A DNA stretch of 64,000 nucleotides, from contig JAUZPR010000004.1 of assembly GCA_030705825.1 (NCBI GenBank), positions 222 to 64,221 of the forward strand, read 5' to 3'. A program made the translations under genes and the position numbers. Below are positions 2,155 through 19,811 of the stretch, in pieces (the first letter of the stretch is position 1; every line of letters begins with the position of its first letter). The notes under the pieces are model-generated. The model saw only the letters and a list, made by a program, of their open reading frames with translations, did not search any database and was not told where the DNA came from. The stretch comes from Bacillota bacterium (GTDB lineage Bacteria; Bacillota; Clostridia; Acetivibrionales; JANLFN01).

Positions 2155-4257
2155 ATGAGATATAGAGGATTGAAGTTTAGATTTTCAGTTTTGCTTCTTG
2201 TATTTCTTATTATCTTTTTCACACAGTCATTCGCATTCACAATCTCGGACATACCGGACAATACCATAAAACTTGGTGATGACTTTTTTGACCTAAATTC
2301 CAATGCAATGAACGACCCTGCCGGTACTATTCCAATCCAGTCTCTATTGACACCCGGAATAAACCAGAATAGGGCATACTTTAAAATAGGCGGAAACTGG
2401 TATGACTTATTCAACCTGAATGGAGACCAGACACTTACACCTGAAAATGCAATGACTGCAGACCAGGTAAATGCAATCCAGGGCTTCGGTAAATGGTATA
2501 AAGCCGGTGACGAGGTTGTTGTTTTATCAGACCGTGCAATTAAAGAAATACCAGTATTAAAAGAAATAGCATCCGATAAGGGAACCGAATACGCCTCAAT
2601 TAATTTGCCAAAGCAGGTGAAGGTGGTTCTGGATGACAACAGTACAATTGATGTCGGAGTAACATGGGATGCAGGTACTCCACTGTATAACAAGGATGTT
2701 CCGGGACGTTACCAGTTTTCAGGAACACTCGCTTCAGTTGAAGGTGTTACAAACCCAAATAATTTAAAGCCTTCAATAGAAGTAGAGGTAGTTATACCCA
2801 ATTCTGATCCTAATCCAAACACTACCATGAACACATCATCAGGAACTACACTCTTTGAGTTTGATAACCAATCAGACTGGGTGAGTTCAACATCAGCCAA
2901 TATAGAAATTGATCAGGCAAATTTTGTTTCGGGAACCGCATCCTCCGCATTATCTCCCTCGACACCTATTGCTATTTTAGATGCTACCGGGACTGCCACA
3001 AAGCAATCCTTTTTCCAGGTACAGACCAGCGGTAATATCGGAGACAAATTGAAGGACATGCAGAATATTGAATTCAATATATATGTACCTGATAAAACCA
3101 AATTTGACTATATGGTAATCAAATTTTACACCAATGATTTTCATAGCTGTTTCTATCAGAACGGAATTGGTAATTGGGAGGTTTCTAACGGCTGGAACAA
3201 GATAAGAAGGTCGGTCGGTGATTTCGAATACGTAGATAGTTCAGGAACTGCAGGTGTAAGTCAAATGTCTGCCATGAGCAGCATGAACAGTCTGGTACAA
3301 ACTTCGGACGGCATTCCGGCAGTAAATGATCTCAAGACAAGCATGCAGAAAAGTATAAGCTTATTGAATAATACCATATACAAACAAAAAGCAGGAAAGA
3401 AATCGGCTTTGTTAAGTTCTGCAGCAGCTTCCGGCAGTTCATTCTGGGGCAATATCTACAGTATGGACGTTGACATTGCTTTTACTAATCCTAATTTGCC
3501 AACTGTTAATTTTGACAAAATCGCAATTAATGTTGCCGGTAATGCCAAATTGTTATTTACATTTGATGATTCCTGGTATGATGTAAAACAATATGCAGAG
3601 CCGATATTAACAGCCAACAATTTCAAAGCTACCCTTTGGACTTATAAAGACGGTGTACTTAATGAATCGGGAACAGGACCTTTAAATATTATGAGTGTTT
3701 CAGACATAAATTCTCTTTATGCAAAGGGATGGGATGTAGGCAATCATACCGTCGACCATCCTGATGACATTACTGCACTGTCACCGGAAAATGTAATAAG
3801 TGAATATAGGGATAATCAGACATGGCTTGACCAAAATGGCTGGACCAGAGCTTCGCAGCATGTGTGCTATCCGTCAGGAAGCTACAATGAACAGGTGATA
3901 AATCTTTTGAAGAGCATAGGGGTGAAGTCTGCGAGGACAACAGAATATGGAATTCAACCTACACCGGTATTCAATATGTACCGGCTGAAAATAGTATTTA
4001 TCAGCAGGGATACACTGGTTTCCGATATTGAAAAACAAGTGGATGAAGCCGTTGCAACAGGTTCAACTATAATTTTCATGCTTCACAGGGTGGAAGACAG
4101 TCCAATTATGACAAACGATACTGAAGGTTACAATGCACTAGCTGTTTCTACAGCCAATTTCCAAGCTATTGTAAATTACGTCAAACAGCTGTCGGATGCA
4201 GGTTCCATAAGTGTAGAGACCATCAGCCAGTGGTATAACGAATACATTGGTAACTAA
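2155..4257 (+). CDS. Secreted multidomain polysaccharide deacetylase (C-terminal NodB/CE4 domain).
   Basis: RBS aaaggggg lies upstream of the ATG. The N-terminus has a hydrophobic signal-like segment (LLLVFLIIFFTQSFAF). There is an Ig-like segment (VVLDDNSTIDVGVTWDAGTPLYNKDVPGRYQFSGTL). The C-terminal domain carries the NodB motifs FTFDDSWYD, GNHTVDHPD and CYPSGSY. Confidence 0.8.
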   Translation: MRYRGLKFRFSVLLLVFLIIFFTQSFAFTISDIPDNTIKLGDDFFDLNSNAMNDPAGTIPIQSLLTPGINQNRAYFKIGGNWYDLFNLNGDQTLTPENAMTADQVNAIQGFGKWYKAGDEVVVLSDRAIKEIPVLKEIASDKGTEYASINLPKQVKVVLDDNSTIDVGVTWDAGTPLYNKDVPGRYQFSGTLASVEGVTNPNNLKPSIEVEVVIPNSDPNPNTTMNTSSGTTLFEFDNQSDWVSSTSANIEIDQANFVSGTASSALSPSTPIAILDATGTATKQSFFQVQTSGNIGDKLKDMQNIEFNIYVPDKTKFDYMVIKFYTNDFHSCFYQNGIGNWEVSNGWNKIRRSVGDFEYVDSSGTAGVSQMSAMSSMNSLVQTSDGIPAVNDLKTSMQKSISLLNNTIYKQKAGKKSALLSSAAASGSSFWGNIYSMDVDIAFTNPNLPTVNFDKIAINVAGNAKLLFTFDDSWYDVKQYAEPILTANNFKATLWTYKDGVLNESGTGPLNIMSVSDINSLYAKGWDVGNHTVDHPDDITALSPENVISEYRDNQTWLDQNGWTRASQHVCYPSGSYNEQVINLLKSIGVKSARTTEYGIQPTPVFNMYRLKIVFISRDTLVSDIEKQVDEAVATGSTIIFMLHRVEDSPIMTNDTEGYNALAVSTANFQAIVNYVKQLSDAGSISVETISQWYNEYIGN

Positions 4258-4418: not shown

Positions 4419-5318
4419 TTAAAACAAATCAGAGAATAGATCTTTTTTGGGTGACCATGGTGTATGGCTTATAAGTTTTGAATTATCACCATAAATATCA
4501 GATATGTCATTATTCTTTATCAAGCTGTCATCAATCTCAAAATACAGCTTCTTTCCAGCCATGTTCATCAGATTTGTTAAAATTTCCTCCATACTGAGTG
4601 ACACGGAACTGCATACATTGTAGATTTCTCCTGGATATCCGTTCATTAGAATTTGCCAATATGCTTCAACAACATCTGCAATATGTAAATAGTCTCTCTT
4701 TGGTTTTATATTGCCTACTTTTATAATATCTCCGTCCTTAGCATTGTTTATCTGTTCAATAAAATTGCCAACCGCCAATTTTCTGGAGATACCTTTTCCT
4801 ATTATATTGAAAGTTCTTGCAACATTCACATTGATTCCGAGGTTGTTAAAATAATATTGCGCAATTTCAGTTTGTATCAGCTTGGAAAAACCATATAAAT
4901 TTACAGGTGCTGCAGGGGAGGATTCTCTTACGGGTAACTGTCGGGCATTTCCGTATTCTGCTGCAGAACCGATTAAAAGTATTTTTTCTATAACTATATT
5001 ATTTTCTATAATTATTTCAAAAATATTTCGTGAGATATTTGCGTTAAGTTGATAATACTCATCAAATGATACGGCTTGGAAGGTACCTATCATATTTATC
5101 AAATAATTTGGTTTAAAGCTGACAATAATGTTTTTCAGGCTGTCTTTATCAAGAGGATTAACCTTTTCATACCATATCCATTTAAAATGGCTGTAATAGT
5201 AATCGTCCTTATCTACGCCGCAAATTGCGTATTTTTCATATAATTTATGTTTTTGGATAAAATCCTTAAAATGATAACCTGTAAAACTATTTGATCCTAG
5301 ACATAATATTTTTTTCAT
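4419..5318 (-). CDS. NAD-dependent epimerase/dehydratase/reductase (extended SDR), a nucleotide-sugar modifying enzyme.
   Basis: The preferred start is MKKILCLGSNSFTGYHF (ATG at 5318, GAGGAG 12 nt upstream), giving a Rossmann GxxxxxG N-terminus. The ORF-track start at 5402 would overlap the upstream gene by more than 100 nt. SDR-like YxxxK region (YGFSKLIQTEI). Overlaps the upstream gene by 32 nt. Confidence 0.75.
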   Translation of the reverse strand: MKKILCLGSNSFTGYHFKDFIQKHKLYEKYAICGVDKDDYYYSHFKWIWYEKVNPLDKDSLKNIIVSFKPNYLINMIGTFQAVSFDEYYQLNANISRNIFEIIIENNIVIEKILLIGSAAEYGNARQLPVRESSPAAPVNLYGFSKLIQTEIAQYYFNNLGINVNVARTFNIIGKGISRKLAVGNFIEQINNAKDGDIIKVGNIKPKRDYLHIADVVEAYWQILMNGYPGEIYNVCSSVSLSMEEILTNLMNMAGKKLYFEIDDSLIKNNDISDIYGDNSKLISHTPWSPKKDLFSDLF

Positions 5319-6018
5319 TAGGAAGGAATACTCCTCTCTTTTCTCTAAAGATGGAGGTCGCTTTGTCATAGTCATCAAACCTTCCGATATCAAGCCAATC
5401 ATAATCTCCTCTATAGCAGCCTATCTTTTTCCCATTTTGGCTTAATAGTGTTATTAAATCGGGAATATCCATCTTTAGGTTTTTAGGTATAAATTCAACA
5501 ACATTTTTATTAAAAACATAAATACCCATACTTACATCAAAATTATAAATGGGTTTTTCTATGTAATTAAGGAATTTTTCATTTTCAGATTGAATAACAC
5601 CAAGGTCTATCTTAACTTCCTTATTAAAAACCGAAATAGTAACATCATTTTCGTTTTTTAAATGAAAGTTATATAGGTCGTTGTAATCTATACTGGTTAA
5701 AAGATCCCCATTCATTACAAGGAAAGTATCTTCAAGGTTGTCAATGATAGAAATTGGTCCGGCAGTTCCAAGGGCACTTTCCTCGATTGAATACTCAATA
5801 TCGATCCCATACTTTTCACCGGTATTAAAAAAAGCTATTAAAAGATCGGCAAGATAATTAAGGGATAACACAAAATTTGTGAATCCAAAATTTTTAAGCT
5901 GTTTCAAAATAATTTCCAGTATAGGAGTATCATCAATAGGCAGTAGTGGTTTCGGAATACAGGTAGTAAACGGTTTTAACCTGACTCCTTTACCGCCCGC
6001 AAGAATTATTGCCTGCAT
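5287..6018 (-). CDS. Sugar-phosphate nucleotidyltransferase (NTP_transferase family).
   Basis: The N-terminus MQAIILAGGKGVRLKPFT..IPKPLLPI is the canonical nucleotidyltransferase signature. The size (243 aa) is typical. Confidence 0.85.
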   Translation of the reverse strand: MQAIILAGGKGVRLKPFTTCIPKPLLPIDDTPILEIILKQLKNFGFTNFVLSLNYLADLLIAFFNTGEKYGIDIEYSIEESALGTAGPISIIDNLEDTFLVMNGDLLTSIDYNDLYNFHLKNENDVTISVFNKEVKIDLGVIQSENEKFLNYIEKPIYNFDVSMGIYVFNKNVVEFIPKNLKMDIPDLITLLSQNGKKIGCYRGDYDWLDIGRFDDYDKATSIFREKRGVFLPNEKNIMSRIK

Positions 6019-6033
6019 AAAACACCCTCCATT

Positions 6034-7026
6034 TTACATATTGAATATATCAGTTTTATATCTATTAATATTATGCTGTAACCATTCAATAGTTTCTTTT
6101 AATCCGGCACTTAAAGAATATTTTGGAGTCCATTCTGTAAGAGCTCTGATCTTACTATTGGAGCCCAAAAGCCTGTTAACTTCGCTTTTATCCGGCCTTA
6201 GCCTGATATCATCAGTTATGATTCTGGCTTCTGGGTTCAATTGGCGGCTGATTTCTTCAAAAATATCTTTAACCGATATCTCCTTTTGTGAAGCTATGTT
6301 TATTTCTTCACCAATAGCTGCATCTGCTTTCGCAATTGAAATAAAACCTGCTACGGTATCTTTAACATAATTGAAATCTCTTGTTGGAGTCAGATTGCCT
6401 AGTTTTATTTCCTTTTTACCCGCTAACAGCTGTGTAATTATAGTAGGTATTACTGCTCTGGCAGACTGTCTGGGTCCATAGGTATTAAAAGGTCGTACTA
6501 TCGTTGTTGGAAGGTTATAGCTTCTGCAAAATGCTTCGGTTAGCCTGTCGGCTCCTATTTTTGAGGCTGAATAGGGGGATTGTCCCTGGTAAGGGTGTTT
6601 CTCATCAATTGGAATATATTGTGCAGTGCCGTATACTTCAGACGTTGAAGTAACAAGTACACGCTCAAGATTATAGTCTCTGGAGGCTTCCAGTATGTTT
6701 AATGTACCTTTAATATTTGTATCTACATAACTTTCCGGGGCATGGTAACTATAGGGTATTGCTATCAGTGCCGCCAGGTGAAAAATTATGTCAACTTTAT
6801 TAAATGCCTCCCTTACACAATTATGATCTCTAATATCTCCGCTGAATACCTCGATCTCCTGCAATTTGGTTTTGTCTATGGTATCAAGCCATCCCCAGGT
6901 GTTTAAAGAATTGTAATACACGAAAGCTTTTACTTTAGCACCTTCATCTATGAGTGCTTCGACCAGATGGCTTCCTATGAACCCATCTGCACCGGTTACC
7001 AAAATGTTTTTTCCGCAAAGTCTCAT
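6034..7026 (-). CDS. NAD-dependent nucleotide-sugar 4,6-dehydratase/epimerase (extended SDR).
   Basis: ILVTGADGFIGSHLVEAL (GxxGxxG), STSEVYG and YSASK (catalytic S...YxxxK), and VRPFNTYGPRQ. Confidence 0.85.
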   Translation of the reverse strand: MRLCGKNILVTGADGFIGSHLVEALIDEGAKVKAFVYYNSLNTWGWLDTIDKTKLQEIEVFSGDIRDHNCVREAFNKVDIIFHLAALIAIPYSYHAPESYVDTNIKGTLNILEASRDYNLERVLVTSTSEVYGTAQYIPIDEKHPYQGQSPYSASKIGADRLTEAFCRSYNLPTTIVRPFNTYGPRQSARAVIPTIITQLLAGKKEIKLGNLTPTRDFNYVKDTVAGFISIAKADAAIGEEINIASQKEISVKDIFEEISRQLNPEARIITDDIRLRPDKSEVNRLLGSNSKIRALTEWTPKYSLSAGLKETIEWLQHNINRYKTDIFNM

Positions 7027-7133: not shown

Positions 7134-8522
7134 TCAATCCAAATTCGGGAACATCATAAATGCATATTTTTTGATATTTTTAAAAAATATTACTAGAAAT
7201 ACAATTGATATAATAAGAGAAAGTATTGATGCAGTCATAAAGCCTATGCATATTAAGTTTAAATGAACTAGATAAGTGATAATAGTAAGCAGTGCATTCA
7301 ATGCTAAATAAATCAAAGATATAAGAAAAGCAAAATTCCTGGCATCAAAGTAAAGTATTACTATCATTGAAACATACATTAATAATGAAGAATTCATACC
7401 TAAAGTTAATATACAAAAGGTGTAATAGGAAGGAAAGCCTGTTTCAATATTTTTGCAGATTATAAGAGGCAATGAGAGCATAATTAATGTTATAATTGTC
7501 TGTATCAAAGCCAGTTTAATATAGCAATATTTTACAGTAACTTTTAATGAATATAAATTATAATCTATTTCATCCAAAGTACCATTGTTATTTATAGATA
7601 AATAGAATGCATTGCAAGAGGTATGCAATGAGGTTTCAAATCTTATACTGAAATATACCAATCCGGGAATGAAACCCAGGACAGCAAGATAAAAAGGCAG
7701 ATCAAATCCGGTCTTAACTGTCAGGAACCCGTTAATAAAACTTCCGGTATCGGTAAATCTATAAAAGAGGGATAAAAAGTATAGGCTGAATGTATAGCAA
7801 AATCCTATAGTAATTAGGGAGGGATATTTGATAATATATCTTGTCCACTCCATAAAGTTGCCGTTTCCTTCTCCAAAAGCTTTCCTGATTTGATAAATCA
7901 GTATAATAGCGGTCAAGGCAAACCCTGAATCAAAGCTTAATAATATATAGTTCAAAGAAAATTGTGGCGGCACCTGCTTAATAAACAGCAACATCAGGAC
8001 AATAAGTATATTTCCTGCAAGAAAACCTAGAGAAATGGATTTATAATTTTTCACGGCAGATAGGTAAATGGTTTCCAAGCTTATAATACTTACTATTGAA
8101 TATAAGATTGACAGCATAATTCCATATTGGTATTTCATTCCTGCAAAAAGTATTAAGCTTATTGAAGCCGCTATGCTTAAAATAACTGCAAAAACCATGG
8201 CACCGTACAGTGATGGCATTATCTTTTGAAACTCCTTTTTGTGAAGGCAATCTGAAACATACCTTGTAAGAACCATTGAATATATGGAAGTCAGGATTGT
8301 TGATAAAATAAAGGAGTACGTTACTGTGGTTAATATCCTTTCAGAAGGAATTCCGGAGTATTTTGAAGTACCTAATATAAGTTGAATAATGAATACGGCT
8401 ACTATACACATAAACATTGGCCCATTAAGTACTATTACTGCATAGCCATAGGACTTTACCGAATGTATCAGGCCATGTTTCCTGTCAATCATATTTCTTA
8501 ATTTAAATCCGATTCCAGCCAT
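7134..8522 (-). CDS. pelG: PelG-like exopolysaccharide export/polymerisation membrane protein.
   Basis: ATG at 8522 gives MAGIGFKLRNM, the characteristic PelG N-terminus. RBS GAGGTG lies 7 nt upstream; the ORF-track TTG at 8528 is less likely. The protein is polytopic and hydrophobic throughout. It sits directly downstream of a PelF-like gene. Confidence 0.75.
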   Translation of the reverse strand: MAGIGFKLRNMIDRKHGLIHSVKSYGYAVIVLNGPMFMCIVAVFIIQLILGTSKYSGIPSERILTTVTYSFILSTILTSIYSMVLTRYVSDCLHKKEFQKIMPSLYGAMVFAVILSIAASISLILFAGMKYQYGIMLSILYSIVSIISLETIYLSAVKNYKSISLGFLAGNILIVLMLLFIKQVPPQFSLNYILLSFDSGFALTAIILIYQIRKAFGEGNGNFMEWTRYIIKYPSLITIGFCYTFSLYFLSLFYRFTDTGSFINGFLTVKTGFDLPFYLAVLGFIPGLVYFSIRFETSLHTSCNAFYLSINNNGTLDEIDYNLYSLKVTVKYCYIKLALIQTIITLIMLSLPLIICKNIETGFPSYYTFCILTLGMNSSLLMYVSMIVILYFDARNFAFLISLIYLALNALLTIITYLVHLNLICIGFMTASILSLIISIVFLVIFFKNIKKYAFMMFPNLD

Positions 8523-8544
8523 TACCAATCACCTCTTAAACTAT

Positions 8545-9966
8545 TCAGGACAATGCTTCTTCGTATACCTTCTTATATTCTGCCTGCATGTTTTTTATTG
8601 TGTAATATTTACTGACTCTCTGCTTTCCAACCTCACCCATCCTTTTACGCATAGATTCATCCAGAGCCAAATGTACAATTGCTTTGGCTATTGCAGTGGA
8701 ATCCATAACAGGTACAAGGATACCAGCTCGGTCTTGGCCTTGGCTGGCACCGTAAACTAATTCACTGCAGCAGCCTACATCGGTAACAATAATGGGCTTG
8801 GAATAAGCCATGGCTTCAAGTATGGAAAGGGGCTGGCCTTCACTGATACTGGTCAGTATAACAATATCCATGGAAAATAAGGTGTGCAAATAGGTGTTGT
8901 AATCAACTCTTTTTGTAAAAACAACATCACAGATATTCTCTTTTTTTATATAATCCAATACATATTCAAAATATTCTTCATCTTCATTAGTAGGTCCCAT
9001 AATAACCAACTTCAATGCGGGTACTTCTTTTTTAGCCAGTTTAAAGGACCTGACCATTGTTATAATATCCTTTATAGGTACTACTCTGGCAATTGCACCT
9101 AATACTATACTATCATCATAAAGCTTGTTATCGAAGGTCTTGTTATAATCCTCAACATTCATACCGTTGGGAATAATCAAAGTTTTTTGTATGTCTGCAC
9201 CTATTCCAATCTGAATACTTCTGTTTCTTTCAAATTGAGTTACTATTCTTTGTGAAAATTCATATGCACATTTTGACATTGAAACGAAATATTTTACCCA
9301 AAGCTCTTTTGCATATCCCATTATTAAATTGGTCTTTATTATTTCCTCCTCTCTTTCCCTTGTATAAATGCCATGCTCTGTTAAAATAAAGGGTTTCTTT
9401 TTAAAATAATTCATTTTAGATGCAACAATACCAGGGAACCCGGCTGAGACACAATGGTATACATCAGCTTCGGGAACGTCCTCCGAAAGGACATAAAACT
9501 GGTATATGTACATTGTTCTGATTGACCACAAAAAATCATTGAACGGAGCATTCGGAAAGTCTGTTTTATATATATCCTGTACTATTTCATAAAATTCAGA
9601 TGAATTAAAAAAGTCAATCAGATTATTTCCCTTGATTCTTTCAATAAATTCAAAAAGCATAGGCCAATCGGAATATCTTCCTGAAAAATGATTCGATAAA
9701 GCCTCTCTTTCACGATTGTCTTTGATAAAATGACGAGAAAGCCAGTGCACTTTCTTTTTTACAGGGGTATCCAAAAAGATTTCTTTAATATGTATCATAT
9801 TATCCGGTATTTTACAGCTGTATTTACCTTTGTCTTTTTCTTTTGCACCTATGGCAAATGTTACAAATTGAAGGTCGGTAAAGCACTTGAGGAAAATATT
9901 CAACCAGCTGGTAATACCCCCGATCATATAAGGATAACTTCCTTCAGTAATTATGCATATCTTCAT
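8545..9966 (-). CDS. pelF: PelF-like GT4 glycosyltransferase.
   Basis: Preferred start MKICIITEGSYPYMIGGITSW (ATG 9966, GAGGGA RBS) matches the PelF/DUF3492-type N-terminus. The C-terminal GT-B motif is SISEGQPLSILEAMAYSKPIIVTDVG. Confidence 0.8.
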   Translation of the reverse strand: MKICIITEGSYPYMIGGITSWLNIFLKCFTDLQFVTFAIGAKEKDKGKYSCKIPDNMIHIKEIFLDTPVKKKVHWLSRHFIKDNREREALSNHFSGRYSDWPMLFEFIERIKGNNLIDFFNSSEFYEIVQDIYKTDFPNAPFNDFLWSIRTMYIYQFYVLSEDVPEADVYHCVSAGFPGIVASKMNYFKKKPFILTEHGIYTREREEEIIKTNLIMGYAKELWVKYFVSMSKCAYEFSQRIVTQFERNRSIQIGIGADIQKTLIIPNGMNVEDYNKTFDNKLYDDSIVLGAIARVVPIKDIITMVRSFKLAKKEVPALKLVIMGPTNEDEEYFEYVLDYIKKENICDVVFTKRVDYNTYLHTLFSMDIVILTSISEGQPLSILEAMAYSKPIIVTDVGCCSELVYGASQGQDRAGILVPVMDSTAIAKAIVHLALDESMRKRMGEVGKQRVSKYYTIKNMQAEYKKVYEEALS

Positions 9967-10001
9967 TAGCTTAATCCCTCTTATACATTTATAGAATTTC
10001 A

Positions 10002-10913
10002 TTACGTAAGAATATTTCTGTTCCAGAAATTAACCATACCGGCTGCCTTATCGGTTAAAAGCAAATCTTTTTCGGATATTGCCTGCAATGTGTCAATAAA
10101 AATATTGGGGTTATTACTCAAATAGCAAAATTCCAGTAAAGCCAGGTATGAATTTTCGCTTCTTGGATACTTACTTATAAATGATTTGCATGAAGCATAA
10201 GCACTGTATAATTCCATTAAAATCAATTCATTTTTTATTTTATTAATAAAATATTTTTCTTCAGGCAGATTATCTATTGAGAAAAGGGTATTAAATACTT
10301 TAAATAAACTTTTCCTATTTTCAAAAGTTGCTGTGTTATTAAGTTCTTCCCATTCGATCAAATCCAAATAAGCATCAATCAGCAGCTTACAATTTTTAAT
10401 GTCATTTTGCTTTTTTTGAAATTCATTTTTTCTTTTGCAAAAGTTTTCGTTTGTTTTGCGCATTATATCTGTTATTGCAGCAGAAGAATAATGGACTATC
10501 TCCGGATCTTCATCCAGTAATGCTTTATTTAGAAAAGGTAATATGGTAGTATAATCCTGGTTTATGCAGTTGAAGAATCTTTTCCTTCTTTGTATTGAAT
10601 CTTTAATTTCAAATATTAAGTCTATAGACAAGACATCATTAAAATTAATATTATTCTCATCTGAAATAACAACTTCTGAAAAGGTTGGGTTGATTTCATC
10701 CTCAGCAATTAATTCGCTTGGATCATAGCTTTTATTTTTTGCAAGTATATCTACAGTAAACATCATAATAAGCCCAAAAAACGGTAATGCGGATATTATA
10801 ATAATACGCGGAAGAAAATTATACTTGGCAAATATCTTAATAAAAACAGAATATATTGCGGCTATTAAAAAATTGATTAATAAAGCAAGTATATAAATAT
10901 TCATATTGAACAT
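10002..10913 (-). CDS. pelE: PelE-like membrane-anchored helical-repeat protein.
   Basis: Two N-terminal hydrophobic helices are followed by an all-helical, TPR-like region. The gene lies between PelD-like and PelF-like genes. The alternative ATG at 10904 forms an ATGA overlap with the pelD stop (10901-10903). The assignment rests on position and architecture, not on a diagnostic motif. Confidence 0.55.
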   Translation of the reverse strand: MFNMNIYILALLINFLIAAIYSVFIKIFAKYNFLPRIIIISALPFFGLIMMFTVDILAKNKSYDPSELIAEDEINPTFSEVVISDENNINFNDVLSIDLIFEIKDSIQRRKRFFNCINQDYTTILPFLNKALLDEDPEIVHYSSAAITDIMRKTNENFCKRKNEFQKKQNDIKNCKLLIDAYLDLIEWEELNNTATFENRKSLFKVFNTLFSIDNLPEEKYFINKIKNELILMELYSAYASCKSFISKYPRSENSYLALLEFCYLSNNPNIFIDTLQAISEKDLLLTDKAAGMVNFWNRNILT

Positions 10914-12625
10914 CCCTTAAAGATTTTAAAAGAATAATAATGTGATATCAGTTCTCCAAGAAAAGTAAGCAAATATTCCATTTCAGCTGTTATTCTGTCA
11001 AAATTGATTCCGTTGAATGTGATTATTCCAAAAACGTATTTATTGGTTTCATCAATAAGAGGTAAGGCAATCATGGGATTTACATCGAAACTTTTATTAA
11101 CATAAATAGACTTGTCTTCAATTAGTTTTTTAAAAAAATCCGGGTTTCTTAATTCGGGTACTTGATTTTCAGATAACAGATAGAAATTTACTTCCTTAAA
11201 TCCGGTTATTTCGCGTACAATTTGAGGAATAGCAGCTTTAAATTCACTTATTGCAGTATTTTCAATTTTCTTTATAGCCATTAATACTTTAATAATATTG
11301 CAATCAGCTATCTTTAGCTGTTCTGCCAGGATTGATGCCGATTTTCTTGTGTCGGATAAATTATTTTTAATACTTGCATAGAGCTGTTCCAATCTTAAAT
11401 AAGACTCTTTAAGCTGCTGCAATTCAAGTTTCTTAGACGAAATGCTGAATCCTGACAGTAATGCTATAAGAAAATAAAGTATGTATGTTTCTATTGTATT
11501 TAGGTTTAATGCAAAACTGCCATTAAAATATGCCTGAATATCGGTTGAAGCAATAGAGAGTACAGCTGATATTATGGAATGTTTAATACCATATAATAGT
11601 CCCATAATTATTATACATAATATTTTTGTATCGAAATGGAGCCGTATAATATTTGAAATCCATACAGCAAACAGAGTCAACAGGATATTTTCAACCCATG
11701 GTAAAATAAGATGCTTTTTCTTTATTTTTTTTGGAGGTTCGGTTTTATTTGATTTATGAGCCTCGAATTTTAAAAACCATTTATAGGTTTTATCAAGGCC
11801 AAAAGTCAGGGGTGTATTAATATAAATATCCAGTTTGATTTCATAGTTGGGGGAATACTTGACTGGCTGATGTCCCCTATAAGATTCAGCTATGCTATTT
11901 GAAAATTTACTATATATATCATTAACGAGTTTATTTATTTCAATAATATCTCCGCGCAACTCCAAAATTCCGCTGGAACTGCTTTCTATTATATTACACA
12001 GCTCTTCTACGGCATCGAAAATGTATAATAATTCTATTAGTTTAATATGCTCAGGCAAATATTCCCGCCTGACATAAGCAGATTTGAATAACTCAAGAAC
12101 TACTCCGCCTTCGCCGCGGATATTCTGACCAGGGCCATAAACAGGAGGCATTCTGACAATAGCAGTATTTAAATGGTATACCCGGCTGTAGGTAGAACAA
12201 TACTGCTCACAGGTTTTTCTGTTCATATAATAGACACCGTTTTTATTATTTTCATTTAATATCTCAGATTCATCATAATTAGATAAGAATAACGTGGAAA
12301 GGAATACAAATCTTGAAACATTGAATTCTACACAAAGATTGAGTGTATTTATGACAGGATCCAACTCGGGGATATATATTTTCCCCATATTGTCAAATGT
12401 GTTTCCGGCTGCGTAAATTACTGCGTCAAAGTGACCTGATTCAAAAATATCCCTGCAATCTTTTGATGAGGCATCAAGTTTATAATATTCAAATTTATGA
12501 ATAAAAGTATGGTGGTTTTCCTCTTGATTTGAGTCTATAACTGTAACAATATGCTTTTTTAAAAGCAATTCGTTTACCAGGTTTTTACCTATAAAACCAT
12601 TTCCCCCTATCACAAGAATGTTCAT
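10901..12625 (-). CDS. pelD: PelD-like protein with an N-terminal SDR (epimerase-like) domain, 4 TM helices and a C-terminal GAF-like domain. No GGDEF domain.
   Basis: MNILVIGGNGFIGKNLV (Rossmann) plus roughly 290 aa with an SDR-like layout. A hydrophobic block follows (about aa 305-400). The last roughly 170 aa look like a single GAF-like fold and then the protein ends. RBS GAGGGGGA. First gene of the operon. Confidence 0.65.
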   Translation of the reverse strand: MNILVIGGNGFIGKNLVNELLLKKHIVTVIDSNQEENHHTFIHKFEYYKLDASSKDCRDIFESGHFDAVIYAAGNTFDNMGKIYIPELDPVINTLNLCVEFNVSRFVFLSTLFLSNYDESEILNENNKNGVYYMNRKTCEQYCSTYSRVYHLNTAIVRMPPVYGPGQNIRGEGGVVLELFKSAYVRREYLPEHIKLIELLYIFDAVEELCNIIESSSSGILELRGDIIEINKLVNDIYSKFSNSIAESYRGHQPVKYSPNYEIKLDIYINTPLTFGLDKTYKWFLKFEAHKSNKTEPPKKIKKKHLILPWVENILLTLFAVWISNIIRLHFDTKILCIIIMGLLYGIKHSIISAVLSIASTDIQAYFNGSFALNLNTIETYILYFLIALLSGFSISSKKLELQQLKESYLRLEQLYASIKNNLSDTRKSASILAEQLKIADCNIIKVLMAIKKIENTAISEFKAAIPQIVREITGFKEVNFYLLSENQVPELRNPDFFKKLIEDKSIYVNKSFDVNPMIALPLIDETNKYVFGIITFNGINFDRITAEMEYLLTFLGELISHYYSFKIFKGCSI

Positions 12626-12732: not shown

Positions 12733-12768
12733 AAAAAAAAATTAGGTATATTCGCATACCTAATTTTT
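12733..12768 (-). terminator. Intrinsic terminator after the MFS gene, upstream of the pel operon.
   Basis: Stem attaggtat / atacctaat. Read on the minus strand it is followed by a run of 9 T. Confidence 0.75.
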
Positions 12769-12831: not shown

Positions 12832-14265
12832 TTATTGCTTTTTAAGCCTGCCGCCCTCAGTAACCGAACGTGTCAGGCTTATAATTACAGCCAGCAGACA
12901 TGACAGCCCGGCCAAAATTGCAACATATCTGAAGCCTTTCATAAAGATGGCTGCATCAAAACCGCTGCCGGTGTTTCCAAATTTATTTATGTCCATTTTA
13001 GTAACTGCAGTAAATAATAGAACTGAAAATGTAGCACCTGAAACCATACCCAGATTTCTGAAAAGTGCGTTTATACCACCTGCGATACCAAGCCTGTCCT
13101 TCGGTACCGAGCCCATAATGCTGTTATTGTTGGGTGATTGGAATATAGCCACACCCAGGCCTAGTAAAGCCATTAAAATAATTATCTCAAAAAACGATGT
13201 TTTAGTGTTTAGTGTAGTCAGATAAAAAAGCACAATTGTATTTATAGTCAAACCGGTTACCGTTAGGGGCCTGTAGGTAATCCTGTCGGAAAGCCATCCG
13301 CTTATGGGAGCTACAATGGCAGTTGTTGCCGGATATGCCGAAATAAGAAGTCCTGCGGTAAGAGTATCCAGCTTCATTGCATATTGCAGGTAAAAAGGGA
13401 TGAACATTGTAGTTGAAAAGGTAGCTATAAAGGATAGGTATGCCGAACTGATACCCATTGAAAATACCCTGCTTTTAAACAATTCCAAATGGATAAGAGG
13501 ATTTTCCGCCTTCCTCTCGGTCCGTATCAAAAAATAAGTTATGATTGCCGAGGCTATAAGCATTGGTATAAAAACATCAAGCTTTATGACATTATCCTCA
13601 ACAAATAAAAGTCCCAGAAATAGCAACATTATTGAAGATACCATCATTAAAGAGCCTTTTATATCGAATTTGCCTGAGTGAGGATTTCCGGGCAAGTCAG
13701 GAATTATTATTAATGTAAGGATGGTGCCGATTATTCCTACCGGGATATTTATTAAGAATATGGACTGCCAGCCTGCAAGATGGACAAGCACACCTCCGAG
13801 ACTAGGGCCAACAAGGCTTCCGATTGCTACTGTCGTTCCGGTAATTCCAAGCGCCATACCTCTCTCTTTAGGAGGAAATGTTGCAGTAACTATACCCTGG
13901 CTGAGAGCCATCATGGAAGATGCACCAACGGCTTGCAATATCCTTGAAAAAACAAGGAATACCAGGCTGTGTGATAATCCGCACAGACCGGATCCGAATG
14001 TAAAAACAATGAATCCGAATAGAAAGATCTTCTTTTTTCCTCTTAAATCGGAAATTTTACCCCAGATTAAAAGTAGAACAGATATGGTAAGCAAATAGGA
14101 TGTTACCACCCATTGTATTGATTCTATTGTTACCGAAAGCTTTCCCGACATGACAGGAAGGGCGATATTAACTATGCTTCCGTCCAGTGTTGCCATAAAT
14201 ACCGATACCGATACATTAAAAAGTATCAGCCATTTGTGTAGCTTGTGCTGCTGTTGCTGTTCCAT
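12832..14265 (-). CDS. MFS transporter, 14-TMS DHA2 (EmrB/QacA-like) type.
   Basis: Preferred start MEQQQQHKLHKW (ATG 14265, GGAGG 5 nt upstream). LDGSIVNIALP and GKISDLRGKKK are typical MFS/DHA2 motifs. Hydrophobic throughout. Confidence 0.8.
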   Translation of the reverse strand: MEQQQQHKLHKWLILFNVSVSVFMATLDGSIVNIALPVMSGKLSVTIESIQWVVTSYLLTISVLLLIWGKISDLRGKKKIFLFGFIVFTFGSGLCGLSHSLVFLVFSRILQAVGASSMMALSQGIVTATFPPKERGMALGITGTTVAIGSLVGPSLGGVLVHLAGWQSIFLINIPVGIIGTILTLIIIPDLPGNPHSGKFDIKGSLMMVSSIMLLFLGLLFVEDNVIKLDVFIPMLIASAIITYFLIRTERKAENPLIHLELFKSRVFSMGISSAYLSFIATFSTTMFIPFYLQYAMKLDTLTAGLLISAYPATTAIVAPISGWLSDRITYRPLTVTGLTINTIVLFYLTTLNTKTSFFEIIILMALLGLGVAIFQSPNNNSIMGSVPKDRLGIAGGINALFRNLGMVSGATFSVLLFTAVTKMDINKFGNTGSGFDAAIFMKGFRYVAILAGLSCLLAVIISLTRSVTEGGRLKKQ

Positions 14266-14437
14266 ATTTCCCTCCGATAAACTTATGCTGCCCAACTTTC
14301 CTATAAAAATCAGTTCGATTAAATGCTTAAAGTAGATTATATATAATACTGGGAAAGTTGTCACTTTATATAATAACATTGAAAGAGGGTTTGTACAGAT
14401 ATTTTACTGGTATTTATGTATAGGTTTCCAAAAGGTT

Positions 14438-14917
14438 TTATTCATTTATAAATTTTTTGAATTTTTCCATTATATCCGGGAATGTATCAAAGAATCGGTT
14501 AAGAAGTTCTATCCTGTGCAGGGTGTTTGCAGTTATATTGTGTTCAATAAGCTCTGTTTCAAATAGGATACTTTCGGTTACTCCGATGTGGCGCAAAAAA
14601 TCTTCTAAAACTGCATGCCTGTTAAATAGGAACTTTCCTATTTCTTTTCCATTCTCGGTAAGAAAAATGATTCCATACTTTTTGTAATCTAAAAGCCCCA
14701 AATGGGTAAGCTTCTGTACCATTTTTGTTGCTGAAGGAGCCTGGACATTCAAAAGCTCTGCAAGCTCATTAATACGGATATAGCCCTCCTCAAGACTATT
14801 CCGGTAAATCATCTCAAGATAATCCTCCATAGATGAGGTCAAAAGCTTGTTATTTTGTTCAAGCAGCTGGTATCCCCTGACCGTGTAAAATTTCTGTGGT
14901 TCTTCCATATTGCTCAC
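14438..14917 (-). CDS. mntR: DtxR-family, MntR-like manganese-responsive transcriptional regulator.
   Basis: SMEDYLEMIY...ATKMVQKL...NRHAVLEDFL...ELIEHN aligns by eye with B. subtilis MntR, including the positions of the metal ligands (D, E, H, E, E, H). Confidence 0.65.
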   Translation of the reverse strand: MSNMEEPQKFYTVRGYQLLEQNNKLLTSSMEDYLEMIYRNSLEEGYIRINELAELLNVQAPSATKMVQKLTHLGLLDYKKYGIIFLTENGKEIGKFLFNRHAVLEDFLRHIGVTESILFETELIEHNITANTLHRIELLNRFFDTFPDIMEKFKKFINE

Positions 14918-16337: not shown

Positions 16338-17552
16338 TTGAACAGGGCATTGATTACAGATGTGCATTATCGTATGGGGTTGGCTGCAGTCAGGTCTCTT
16401 GGCAGGAGGTCAATACCGGTTACTGCGGTGGAATTTAATAATATTCCCCAGAAATCAGTTTTGGGGTTTTATTCCCGCTATACAGATGATAAAAAGATTG
16501 TACCCAATGCATTGGAAAATCAAATGGAGTTTGTAAACAGCATTATTAAAATTGCTGAGGAACAGCAGAATACCGCCGCAAACCATATGGACAAGCCGGT
16601 GCTAATACCAGTTGGTTTGGACAGTCTGATGGCGGTATCCAGATATGATAAACTTCTGGAACCTTATTATGATTTCGTAGTTCCGCCTTTGGAAAGTATT
16701 GAAATTGCAAATGATACCGAGAAACTGCTCGAGGTAGCTGAAAAAATAGGTGTACCATATCCCGAGTCAACTACTTTAGCTGAGAATGAGACGGTTGAGC
16801 ATTTATCACAGAGGATAGGATATCCTGTAGTAATAAAATACCGTAAGGGCGAACTTTTAAAATTAAGTGCCGGTAAGAGATATAGAATAATTCACGATCA
16901 AAAAACCTTTATTGAAGCATTTAAAGAGATGCATGCAATACAAAAGTATCCTCTAGTGCAGAGATATGTTAGCGGTACGGGTTTCGGCGTTTCCGTAGTG
17001 TTTGACAGACGTGGAGAACCGCTGGAAATATTCTGCCATAAAAGGTTGAGGGAATATCCTGCAACCGGGGGTCCAAGCTGCTTCTGTGAAAGTGTTTGGG
17101 ATGACAGGTTGGTAGACTATGCAGTAAAATTACTTAAGGCATTAAATTGGCGCGGTGTGGCAATGGTAGAATTCAAAGGTGATCTTGATTATGAGGTGTG
17201 CCTGATGGAAATAAATCCGAGGTTTTGGGGAAGCCTTCCTTTGTCAATTGCTTCGGGATGCGATATACCTTATGCAATTTACCGTGCAGCATCCTGGGAA
17301 TTTTCGAAGGAAAATGATGCGACGGGATATAAATGGAGTCCAGAAAGATATAAAAAAGGAAAACGGATGCGTTACCTACTGCAGGATATAATGACATTAC
17401 CAGGTTATTTAAAGATTACGAAAAATAAAGCCGGATTTCTTGCAAAATTTACAGCTCAATTATTTAATCCCACCATTTCAGAGGGAGTTTTTGAATTTAA
17501 AGATTGGAAGCCATCATTGGCATATTTGAGACAAGCAGTAAAGAAAATATAA
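16338..17552 (+). CDS. ATP-grasp domain enzyme (carboxylate-amine/thiol ligase superfamily), substrate unknown.
   Basis: TTG start after AAAGGGAG. GYPVVIKYRKG, EYPATGGPS, GVAMVEFK and MEINPRFWGS are typical ATP-grasp elements. Confidence 0.75.
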   Translation: MNRALITDVHYRMGLAAVRSLGRRSIPVTAVEFNNIPQKSVLGFYSRYTDDKKIVPNALENQMEFVNSIIKIAEEQQNTAANHMDKPVLIPVGLDSLMAVSRYDKLLEPYYDFVVPPLESIEIANDTEKLLEVAEKIGVPYPESTTLAENETVEHLSQRIGYPVVIKYRKGELLKLSAGKRYRIIHDQKTFIEAFKEMHAIQKYPLVQRYVSGTGFGVSVVFDRRGEPLEIFCHKRLREYPATGGPSCFCESVWDDRLVDYAVKLLKALNWRGVAMVEFKGDLDYEVCLMEINPRFWGSLPLSIASGCDIPYAIYRAASWEFSKENDATGYKWSPERYKKGKRMRYLLQDIMTLPGYLKITKNKAGFLAKFTAQLFNPTISEGVFEFKDWKPSLAYLRQAVKKI

Positions 17553-17553
17553 T

Positions 17554-18384
17554 TTGGAGGACAAGCTGTTGAAATTCGACCTGCACTTGCATTCCAGACA
17601 TTCTCCTGATTCTAAAAGTAAAGTAAAGGATATTATAGATAAAGCCCTGAGGACAGAACTTCAGGGCGTTTCAATTACTGACCACAACTGCTTTGACGGA
17701 AGTGAAGAAGCTTTAAGCATAAATACATCCGATCTGATTATTGTTCCCGGAGCAGAATATTCTACTGATCAGGGACACATTCTTGTTTATTTTCTGAAGT
17801 ATGGGATTGAAAAGCTAAACCTGGATACCGATTCAATGGGCCGTTACAGGTGGCAGGATATTATTCAGGAAGCACACCGGCAGGATGCACTGGCTTTTCT
17901 TGCACATCCTTACAGATATAAAAAGAATTACGAAAGTGACATATGGCAAGAGGTTGACGGTATAGAAATTTATAATTCCAGAGCGGCCTTGTGCAGGAAC
18001 ATGAATGCCAACCTCAGGGCTTTTGAACAGGCCTCGGAAATGAATAAGGCTTTTTCCGCAGGAAGCGACGGACATTGGCTGGGGGAAATAGGGAACGCCT
18101 TTTGGGAATATGAAAACATAAAAGAAAATAAGACAGATATTAACGAAGAAATAAAACAGGCATTAAGGAGCGGTAAGGGCAAAGTTTTCGGTTCAGCAAC
18201 AAACAGGTTTTATGAACCGTCCAGCCAGATATTTAAAAGATTACACGCCAGAAAATATTTAAATTTACCCAAACCACTTATTAAAATGGCATATGCATGT
18301 GTTATGGAAACCGGCAGATATCTCGGAATAGGTGAAAAACCTATGGAGGGCTGGCTGGACATTGATTCTAATGAAAAGGAGTGA
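17554..18384 (+). CDS. PHP-domain metal-dependent phosphoesterase.
   Basis: FDLHLHSRHSPDS and SITDHN are PHP motifs, plus a later AHPYR and GSDGH. The start is uncertain: an in-frame TTG at 17569 has better spacing to GGAGG (17557-17561). Confidence 0.75.
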   Translation: MEDKLLKFDLHLHSRHSPDSKSKVKDIIDKALRTELQGVSITDHNCFDGSEEALSINTSDLIIVPGAEYSTDQGHILVYFLKYGIEKLNLDTDSMGRYRWQDIIQEAHRQDALAFLAHPYRYKKNYESDIWQEVDGIEIYNSRAALCRNMNANLRAFEQASEMNKAFSAGSDGHWLGEIGNAFWEYENIKENKTDINEEIKQALRSGKGKVFGSATNRFYEPSSQIFKRLHARKYLNLPKPLIKMAYACVMETGRYLGIGEKPMEGWLDIDSNEKE

Positions 18385-19811
18385 TTGATTTGTTCCTCTA
18401 TGATATGGCACGTAAAGTAAATCACTATAGAAAAATGCGCAGAAAAATACAGGCTGGAAAATATTTGAGCCCCGTAAGAAGGATAGAGAGAACAGCACCC
18501 TTAAGTAAAAAACGCTTGGTTGCAATGACCTTTGATGACGGTCCCAGCAGTGCGTTCCCAAATCCGCCGGTCAGAGGTGCGGAAGAACAGCTGGGGCTTA
18601 CTGAGGAGCTGTTATATATATTAAACAGCTATAAAGCCAAGGGAACATTTGATGTCATAGGTACTACCGAAAACAACTATCCCGACAATCAGGGGAAAGT
18701 CGGGGATTTTACATGGAGCGGAGTACGCTTTGACCATTATCCGGAATTTGGCAAGGACAAGCTGGCCGGTGTTAAAAACCAGCTTGAGCTTGCACAAAAG
18801 ATTATTGCAGAAGGTCACGAAATTGCCAACCATGGTTACAGGCATATGATTTTTGGCCCAATGAAAGTGGTTTACGGAAAAAGAACTCATTTCAATACAT
18901 TAAAAGAGGTAATAGAAGATCTTTCTGCACTCCATCAGCTTGTTAACGAACAATTGAACTATAAAATACGCTTATCAAGGCCTCCGCATTATATAGATAA
19001 AATTCCCGGCGGACATACTTCATATGATGCATATCATTATATGAACTATAATTATCTGGCGGCCAGCTTTGACGGCGGTGGATGGATACCCTCCTGCGGA
19101 GAATATGCTCAGGATGTGAAGGTAATGACAGATCCTATCAAACAAGCATTGGAAAAAAATCCTGATGCTTTGAACGGACAGATTATTTTTCAGAAGGACG
19201 GCTTCAACATGTCTCTTCAAACTCCTGTGACAACTGCCCTTGAAAGCGGACTTAAAATGTTGTCCGACGCAGGCTATGAAGTGGTTACTGCATCTGAACT
19301 GCTTGCACTATCACCATTTGAGGATATCGGGGATGTGGATCCTGTTTTTGAAGCAGTCAGAAAGCTTGCAGATTCAGGTTATGTCATTGGTTATAAAAAT
19401 AATACCTTCCAGCCCGACAGACCGGTTACACGCGGTGAATTGGCAATGATGACGGTAGCTCCGGAGATCCTGCTTAACGAATACAGGTCGCTGGTGGATA
19501 TGGCAACAGAAGGACGCGGTATACCGGCGCCTATGTTTAAGGATGTCCCTTTAAACCATCCTTACAGGATTGCAATTGAAAAGGCAGCAGCAGCGGGTTG
19601 GCTTACCAGGGTTAATGCCGAAAGAAAATTCAGGCCGGATGATTTTGTTACTCCGATAGAATTTGCAGAGTTCCTTGGCACCAGAGCTGCAGGCTCAAAT
19701 GTTGAGTGGAATCCGAATGAGTTCAAAGGTATAGGAGTTCCGCCAGAAAAGCCGGATATTTTAAGACGAAGGGATATAATAGGAGCATTGGCTCAAATCA
19801 ATTTAAAATAG
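18381..19811 (+). CDS. Polysaccharide deacetylase (NodB/CE4) with C-terminal SLH cell-wall anchoring repeats.
   Basis: NodB motifs MTFDDGPS, ANHGYRH and SRPPHY. The C-terminus has SLH-like repeats (FEDIGDVDPVFEAVRKLADSGYVIGYKNNTFQPDRPVTRGELAMM and FKDVPLNHPYRIAIEKAAAAGWL). The likely true start is TTG at 18390, 9 nt after AAGGAG. Overlaps the PHP gene end. Confidence 0.8.
   Translation: MIDLFLYDMARKVNHYRKMRRKIQAGKYLSPVRRIERTAPLSKKRLVAMTFDDGPSSAFPNPPVRGAEEQLGLTEELLYILNSYKAKGTFDVIGTTENNYPDNQGKVGDFTWSGVRFDHYPEFGKDKLAGVKNQLELAQKIIAEGHEIANHGYRHMIFGPMKVVYGKRTHFNTLKEVIEDLSALHQLVNEQLNYKIRLSRPPHYIDKIPGGHTSYDAYHYMNYNYLAASFDGGGWIPSCGEYAQDVKVMTDPIKQALEKNPDALNGQIIFQKDGFNMSLQTPVTTALESGLKMLSDAGYEVVTASELLALSPFEDIGDVDPVFEAVRKLADSGYVIGYKNNTFQPDRPVTRGELAMMTVAPEILLNEYRSLVDMATEGRGIPAPMFKDVPLNHPYRIAIEKAAAAGWLTRVNAERKFRPDDFVTPIEFAEFLGTRAAGSNVEWNPNEFKGIGVPPEKPDILRRRDIIGALAQINLK

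Follow-up and report, generated by a model that had tools for sequence, protein, structure and literature searches.

A PelD-family protein with an N-terminal SDR domain and no GGDEF domain in a clostridial pel operon

Pel is one of the most widely distributed polysaccharides of biofilms, and cyclic di-GMP (c-di-GMP) switches it on at PelD. What becomes of PelD when its c-di-GMP receptor domain, a degenerate GGDEF domain with an RxxD I-site, is missing? This question is raised by a pel operon in a stretch of 64,000 nucleotides (nt), called here the window, from contig JAUZPR010000004.1 (positions 222 to 64,221) of the Bacillota bacterium assembly GCA_030705825.1. The first gene of the operon encodes a protein of 574 residues (aa) that starts with a domain of the short-chain dehydrogenase/reductase (SDR) type, continues through four transmembrane (TM) helices and ends with a GAF domain. 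The c-di-GMP receptor domain is absent from it. The gene and its parts are as follows.

10901..12625, minus strand: pelD-like gene, 574 aa (SDR domain, four TM helices, stalk, GAF domain, no GGDEF domain); open reading frame (ORF), translation and domain evidence
11747..12625, minus strand: extended-SDR domain, aa 1-293; PF01370, Foldseek and residue mapping
11435..11731, minus strand: four-helix membrane block, aa 299-397, DUF4118-like; AlphaFold2 helices and hydropathy segments
11258..11434, minus strand: juxtamembrane stalk helix, aa 398-456; unbroken AlphaFold2 helix at aa 375-456
10913..11257, minus strand: reduced GAF domain, aa 457-571; Foldseek matches to PelD and GAF domains

The boundaries of the pelD ORF, stop codon included, are exactly those proposed in an earlier sequence-only reading of the window. 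The gene has an ATG start and a ribosome-binding site GAGGGGGA 5' of it, and the protein begins with MNILVIGGNGFIGKN. A plus-strand reading of 10901-12625 contains many stop codons and was rejected. The protein stops at the last GAF helix, while its GGDEF-bearing relatives of about 720-740 aa carry 95-120 more residues with the RxxD motif, the signature of this tail being RxxD-x-x-G. No Pfam match to GGDEF or PelD_GGDEF was observed in the window PelD. The PelD_GGDEF model matched no Gram-positive relative tested, and thus it cannot decide membership in the family. The sole R..D tetrapeptide, RNPD at Arg493, was considered as a cryptic I-site and rejected as a chance occurrence: it lies in a non-conserved GAF loop, and about 0.6 such tetrapeptides are expected by chance. 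No other trace of a GGDEF domain or an I-site was found in the C-terminal 170 aa, and the proposal that the known c-di-GMP receptor site has been removed was borne out. It is highly probable that the window PelD does not bind c-di-GMP in the I-site manner.

The window comes from a metagenome-assembled genome (MAG), and the missing domain might be an artefact of assembly or annotation, the gene being truncated or a pseudogene. However, a rough neighbour-joining tree built from the TM-GAF core places the window PelD in one clade with nine further sequences that lack GGDEF (P0002, P0003, P0008, P0012, P0013, P0016, P0017, L003, L004), and these ten clade members, from independent assemblies, share the same end point. 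The first 13 nt of the downstream gene pelE already lie within pelD, leaving no room for a lost domain, and a scan of all ORFs in the 64-kb window and eight related loci for GGDEF motifs found none. An artefact is hardly credible. A c-di-GMP riboswitch as a substitute input was not found either, at the Rfam gathering threshold in the window or at E <= 1 in the pelD leader. A literature search on c-di-GMP enzymes in Acetivibrio/C. thermocellum turned up nothing directly usable.

Is a protein without the receptor domain still a PelD? Firstly, the gene is followed by a pelE-like gene, pelF and pelG in the order pelD-pelE-pelF-pelG, all overlapping or adjacent.

10002..10913, minus strand: pelE-like gene, 303 aa; 13-nt overlap with the end of pelD, tblastn homology to pelE-position genes
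8545..10002, minus strand: pelF, GT4 glycosyltransferase; NF038011 PelF, E 2e-96, 324 bits (cutoff 100), with DUF3492 and Glycos_transf_1
7134..8528, minus strand: pelG; PF16933 PelG, E 1.3e-99

The 303-aa product has no Pfam match, and its gene has homologues where pelE lies in related loci, among them the canonical pel operons of Pectinatus (tblastn E 1e-8 to 7e-60). Secondly, when the C-terminal 279 aa were modelled separately (pLDDT, the predicted local distance difference test, 81), the top Foldseek matches were those to Pseudomonas aeruginosa PelD (4etz_B, 4dn0) with E 1.2e-3 and probability 1.00, followed by generic GAF domains. Thirdly, a phmmer search with aa 296-574 against 1.84 billion representatives retrieved only 50 proteins. 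Among these are proteins that end in an RxxD tail, some of about 720-740 aa with the order SDR-TM-GAF and others of the TM-GAF type lacking the SDR domain. Word-indexed protein searches yielded few further relatives. Finally, the window protein is homologous over its full length to P0004 of Paenibacillus wynnii (E 1.3e-30) and to proteins of Pectinatus, the latter located in canonical pelD-pelE-DUF2194(PelA_DA)-pelF-pelG operons. Given the operon context, the fold match, the phmmer relatives and the Paenibacillus and Pectinatus homologues, we assign the protein to the PelD family with high confidence. It has the pelE, pelF and pelG neighbours of a PelD, and its four TM helices, juxtamembrane helix and GAF domain. 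The GGDEF domain with the RxxD I-site is missing; the same feature is missing from the published class IV, and thus it defines classes I-III of PelD and not the whole family.

The domain anatomy was derived from an AlphaFold2 model built on a 36-sequence alignment (mean pLDDT 82). It consists of the SDR domain at aa 1-293, membrane helices at aa 299-397, a long helix extending to aa 456, and an alpha/beta domain at aa 459-571. Within the substrate-binding lobe of the SDR domain, aa 246-266 are modelled with low pLDDT. The membrane helices (299-326, 333-345, 347-367 and from 375 onward) agree with the four-helix hydrophobic block seen earlier, and relatives of the window PelD have weak Pfam DUF4118 matches in this block. 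An Epimerase match and a PelD_GGDEF or GAF match had been expected from profile searches: the former was found at aa 3-215 (PF01370, E 1.7e-20), whereas aa 300-574 match no Pfam or NCBIfam family. Foldseek with the full model retrieved GalE, a UDP-glucose 4-epimerase (4zrm, E 1e-17), and PelX (6wjb, E 2e-13), with TM-scores of about 0.75 when normalised to the target. The proposed comparison with known structures thus places the C-terminus closest to PelD (4etz, 4dn0) and the SDR domain near PelX.

The last 170 or so residues had been read as a single GAF domain followed by the stop codon. There is indeed one GAF domain and then the stop, but the GAF fold proper takes about 115 aa and is preceded by a stalk helix of about 60 aa. 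Around aa 484-492 the domain is some 20-24 residues, or approximately one strand and a loop, shorter than in most relatives. The homologous regions of P0018, P0023 and P0005 match Pfam GAF or GAF_3. The same part of the GAF domain is also shortened in P0002 and in the lineage of P0016, L003 and L004; it is evolutionarily plastic.

What does the SDR domain do? Its residues were mapped by alignments to 6bwl, 2p5u and 4zrm. The glycine-rich motif GGNGFIG occupies aa 7-13 (12587-12607) and is followed by Asp31, Ser110, Thr111 and the stretch from Tyr132 to Arg136 (12218-12232). In all three alignments Arg136 takes the place of the catalytic lysine. The conserved Asn of NVYGP is replaced by Pro161, and the diphosphate-binding Arg of TRDxxYV by Ile197; in GalE-type enzymes this Asn and this Arg contact the nucleotide sugar. 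The features of an epimerase are thus present as far as the extended-SDR fold and the GxxGxxG motif are concerned, whereas the Ser/Thr-Tyr-Lys triad and the contacts to the nucleoside diphosphate (NDP) sugar are not intact. The sequence-only reading had described a complete SDR domain of about 300 aa; the extent and the fold were right, completeness was not, given Arg136, Pro161 and Ile197.

The same pattern is observed in the ten-member clade. The GGxGFIG motif and Asp31 are invariant in 10/10 members, whose sequences are otherwise 25-40% identical, and Ser110 and Ser/Thr111 are kept throughout. At the position of the catalytic tyrosine six members have Tyr, three have His and one has Phe, and the lysine is kept in all but the window protein (9/10). 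Both NDP-sugar contacts, Asn and Arg, are replaced in every member; class II-like relatives keep both. The mean pairwise identity is highest in the Rossmann half of the SDR domain (42%) and decreases through the stalk (37%), the TM block (31%) and the GAF domain (29%) to the substrate lobe (25%). The Rossmann half appears to have been kept under selection. An Asp at the end of the beta2 strand favours NAD over NADP in SDRs. The SDR domain has most likely retained NAD(H) binding, given the invariance of GGxGFIG and Asp31. It probably is no UDP-hexose 4-epimerase, and on the same residue patterns it is rather likely to be non-catalytic.

The sequence-only reading had an epimerase activity coupled directly to the Pel inner-membrane complex. 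More generally, the SDR domain might be an active nucleotide-sugar enzyme, an epimerase or a reductase, tethered to the synthase and feeding PelF with a channelled, modified precursor, as hypothesised in the literature for class II PelD. The extended-SDR fold close to GalE and PelX agrees with it, as do the presence of GGNGFIG, Asp31, Ser110-Thr111 and Tyr132 and the lysine kept by the other nine clade members. Moreover, no GalE/PelX-type 4-epimerase was recognised among the approximately 20 window ORFs scanned with profiles, the whole cluster included. However, the lysine is an arginine in the window protein itself, the sugar contacts are lost in the entire clade and the tyrosine in four of its members, and the substrate lobe is both poorly conserved and modelled with low confidence. 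The operon already holds two stand-alone SDR sugar enzymes. Finally, sister loci with the same operon have no SDR domain. An active tethered enzyme is therefore unlikely, and the coupled epimerase in particular was not upheld.

The sister loci are L083 and L085. Their pelD genes (1449-2375, 308 aa, and 6001-6960, 319 aa, respectively) encode TM and GAF alone, with neither SDR nor GGDEF domain, and thus the SDR domain is dispensable in close relatives. In L085 this gene is followed by the same pelEFG genes and the same cassette of dehydratase, nucleotidyltransferase and reductase genes as in the window; the L083 contig ends soon after pelF. Both pelD genes lie within intact operons and follow a GH114 gene, a family to which the hydrolase domain of PelA belongs. 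The stretches retrieved for L083 and L085 contained no called transposase, and this differs from the case of S. thermophilus JIM8232 in the literature.

Such loci raise another possibility, that the SDR domain is a decaying remnant without ligand or function, heading for the loss already seen in the TM-GAF-only relatives. The drift of catalytic residues within the clade would be in line with decay, and the SDRs of the published classes III and IV are called degenerate. On the other hand, an invariant GGxGFIG motif and Asp31 in ten sequences this divergent, and a Rossmann half that is the most conserved part of the protein, are unexpected for a decaying domain. We consider a remnant quite improbable.

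With moderate confidence we thus favour another explanation, that the protein is the PelD subunit of a Pel-type synthase and acts as a c-di-GMP-independent scaffold whose SDR half binds a dinucleotide without catalysis. The TM-stalk-GAF core would assemble with PelE and PelG and recruit PelF, as in P. aeruginosa, where this role of the core is taken from literature cited in PMC7890745. Activation of the synthase would not depend on c-di-GMP binding at PelD, and post-translational control through c-di-GMP would be missing there. The SDR domain would be a non-catalytic dinucleotide-binding module at the cytoplasmic face of the synthase, serving in docking or in regulation and sensing.

Several observations weigh against this explanation. 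Some clade members keep both Tyr and Lys of YxxxK, six of ten by a count that has the Tyr in seven, and may have residual or altered catalysis on a non-canonical substrate, and Arg can partly stand in for Lys in some SDRs. Cofactor binding is deduced from motifs. The GGDEF scan covered the 64 kb and the related loci, and is silent on c-di-GMP production by the rest of the genome. The tie to P. aeruginosa PelD is one of fold and context, with a modest Foldseek E-value of 1.2e-3; direct sequence homology is limited to uncharacterised PelDs of the Gram-positive type (Paenibacillus, Pectinatus). Indeed, a TM-GAF profile run against the PDB sequences failed to retrieve P. aeruginosa PelD and gave only weak GAF matches (E 0.05-0.2). 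This failure accords with the literature, where the Gram-positive PelDs were found by fold recognition (PMC7112168).

How does this protein relate to the known PelDs? The sequence-only reading stated, with reservation, that GGDEF-less and SDR-containing variants had been noted in some Gram-positives. This is correct, and the suggested novelty was overstated, as a GGDEF-less PelD fused to an SDR domain is an already published architecture. Whitfield et al. 2020 (PMC7112168) described the N-terminal SDR domain of PelD as apparently active in Brevibacillus and apparently inactive in streptococci, clostridia and actinobacteria, and reported that GGDEF had been lost specifically in streptococci. 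Four classes of PelD were distinguished by Whitfield et al. 2021 (PMC7890745), who found an SDR domain in about 75% of Gram-positive PelDs. In that scheme the SDRs of classes III and IV are degenerate, class IV, with no GGDEF, occurs exclusively in streptococci, and all other SDR-bearing PelDs are said to retain GGDEF. A 2025 study of S. intermedius (PMC12345266, mBio) demonstrated that deletion of a class IV pelD lowers Pel-dependent aggregation, and described the SDR domain as having no known function.

The window PelD shares with streptococcal class IV proteins such as SiPelD the order of SDR, four TM helices (DUF4118) and GAF, the lack of GGDEF, the position as first gene of a pel operon of the Gram-positive type, and the presumed unresponsiveness to c-di-GMP. 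However, the published class IV has neither GxxGxxG nor the SYK triad, whereas the window protein has GGNGFIG, the Ser/Thr and the Tyr. Class IV is said to be confined to Streptococcus, while the window PelD comes from a clostridial MAG and from a separate clade; no named streptococcal sequence was included in the tree, and this separation refers to P0023 as a proxy and to the literature. The operons also differ, the streptococcal one being pelDEA_DAFG with four extra genes, and that of the window having no DUF2194 PelA_DA gene and a three-gene deoxysugar cassette.

With class II (Brevibacillus and Paenibacillus; intact SDR, TM, GAF and degenerate GGDEF) the window PelD shares full-length homology and an SDR domain with intact cofactor motif on a PelD core. 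In contrast to SPYGxxK, SNVYGPRQ and QTRDFIYV of class II it has YYMNR, PPVYGPGQ and LIELLYI, and the RxxD tail of about 100 aa is missing. Class I PelDs of P. aeruginosa and B. cereus (4dn0, 4etz) have the same four TM helices, juxtamembrane helix and GAF domain and the same PelE, PelF and PelG partners. Unlike them, the window protein lacks GGDEF and the I-site and has the extra SDR domain, and identity in the aligned GAF domain is about 10-12%. PelX and GalE (6wjb, 4zrm, 2p5u) share the extended-SDR fold, GxxGxxG and the aligned catalytic Ser/Thr and Tyr. The window SDR differs from them in the replacements of Lys by Arg, Asn by Pro and Arg by Ile and in the fusion to a membrane protein, and the sequence match to PelX has an E-value of only 7e-6. 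Thus the window PelD fits none of the four classes exactly, having a cofactor motif like that of class II and a C-terminus like that of class IV, and it extends the GGDEF-less PelDs beyond streptococci.

Three more GGDEF-less sequences (P0023, P0035, P0005) are placed apart from the clade, among GGDEF-bearing ones, and this points to several independent losses of the domain. P0005, from a sediment metagenome (L002, 2790-4748), is a 652-aa PelD with an intact class II-type SDR domain (SSAAVYG, YGMSK, NVYGPRQ, QTRDFIYV) and no GGDEF tail, an architecture that likewise falls outside the four published classes. The L002 operon contains a 76-aa ORF between pelE and pelF.

The clade of the window PelD is rare, clostridial and Acetivibrio-like, and is known from metagenomes only; the survey of related genomes was seeded on the SDR N-terminus. 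Among the matches listed, two genomes are nearest, one a Bacillota MAG and the other that of an uncultured Acetivibrio sp. (order Acetivibrionales of the class Clostridia). The G+C content of the window itself is 37.6%, and CBM_X2 and SLH proteins are among its products. One of these is a 641-aa surface protein (133-2058, plus strand) with three CBM_X2 domains, Big_6 and Big_4. It is listed with a GTG start, and its true N-terminus may lie beyond the window edge. Surface proteins of this CBM_X2 type are typically found in cellulolytic Clostridia, in line with an Acetivibrio-like origin.

The upstream region confirms pelD as the first gene of its operon, as had been proposed. The 206-nt intergenic region 5' of pelD contains a 9-bp hairpin followed by T8, the terminator of the preceding major facilitator superfamily (MFS) gene, and therefore pelD starts an operon of its own. 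The consensus terminator scan missed this hairpin because its stem is AT-rich.

12733..12764, minus strand: intrinsic terminator of the upstream MFS gene (9-bp AT-rich stem, 6-nt loop, T8); read from the sequence

The region upstream of the pel operon (12832-14917, minus strand) encodes the MFS transporter and a metal-dependent repressor of the DtxR/MntR type. These two genes are separated from pelD by the terminator and are not kept in the related loci.

Downstream of pelG the operon contains a cassette of three candidate sugar genes.

6034..7026, minus strand: NDP-sugar 4,6-dehydratase, LegB-like; TIGR04180, 503 bits against a cutoff of 475
5287..6018, minus strand: sugar-1-phosphate nucleotidylyltransferase; PF00483, E 1.8e-35
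4419..5402, minus strand: Rmd-like 4-ketoreductase of the SDR type; best PDB match 2pk3 (GDP-6-deoxy-D-lyxo-4-hexulose reductase), E 5e-33

In its longest form, the reductase ORF shares 116 nt with the gene upstream. The Rossmann motif (GSNSFTG) lies after Met29, and the orthologue in L001 has 295 aa; the real start is therefore probably Met29, near position 5318. The series pelD-pelE-pelF-pelG, dehydratase, nucleotidylyltransferase and Rmd-like reductase is common to the loci L001, L003, L004 and L085. In these four loci the dehydratase is 74-78% identical, whereas PelD is only 28-38% identical. The nucleotidylyltransferase is 65-68% identical in L001, L003 and L004, and the reductase 52-55% identical in related loci. 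Since the dehydratase is so much more conserved than PelD, we suggest that the polymer or its decoration involves a 6-deoxy sugar, and not GalNAc alone.

The DUF2194-type PelA_DA is absent from the window and from L001-L004 and L085, and a search of the window for the GH114 gene and the beta-helix protein known from related loci found neither. The beta-helix protein is one of 676-683 aa (DUF1565/NosD-like), encoded divergently beside pelD in L003 (7353-9383) and L004 (7424-9475), with a part of it in L002 (3-830). A role as a glycanase or lyase of the polymer is conceivable. Convergent with the window operon is a large deacetylase gene.

2155..4257, plus strand: secreted protein of 700 aa with Big_4 and CE4 polysaccharide deacetylase domains; PF01522, E 1.7e-18

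Its product is 50% identical to an operon neighbour in L001 (12754-14472) and to the CE4 part of a 953-aa protein in L085 (1739-4600). A large CE4 deacetylase adjoins the pel operon in the window, L001 and L085. Possibly, this protein is a non-orthologous replacement of the PelA_DA deacetylase. About 4 kb from the pel operon (16338-19811, plus strand) there is a cluster whose products are an ATP-grasp enzyme, a phosphoesterase with a PHP domain and an SLH-anchored CE4 polysaccharide deacetylase, the last being the second cell-wall-associated deacetylase in the window.

The constant link to the dehydratase, nucleotidyltransferase and Rmd-like cassette and the lack of a DUF2194 PelA fit one more possibility. 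The Rossmann half could be a sensor of NAD(H) or of another nucleotide that replaces c-di-GMP as allosteric input, and the synthase could make a polymer with or from a 6-deoxy sugar, not the canonical GalNAc/GalN Pel. This is a speculative reading, and we consider it doubtful.

The finding is an incremental extension of published work and no new kind of system. What is new is modest: a clostridial clade seen in metagenomes only, with its own loss of GGDEF according to the rough tree, GGxGFIG and Asp31 kept, no DUF2194 PelA_DA and a constant deoxysugar cassette. The literature treats the loss of the c-di-GMP domain as a peculiarity of streptococci, and ties it to the lack of c-di-GMP signalling in Streptococcus. 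The domain has also been lost in a separate clade of clostridia, and the P0005 and P0035 lineages appear to have lost it independently. A cofactor motif that is invariant while catalytic and substrate residues drift gives a testable lead on the function of the SDR domain. Together, the losses of GGDEF and the natural PelDs reduced to TM and GAF suggest that TM and GAF form the minimal functional core of PelD, and that GGDEF and SDR are exchangeable input modules.

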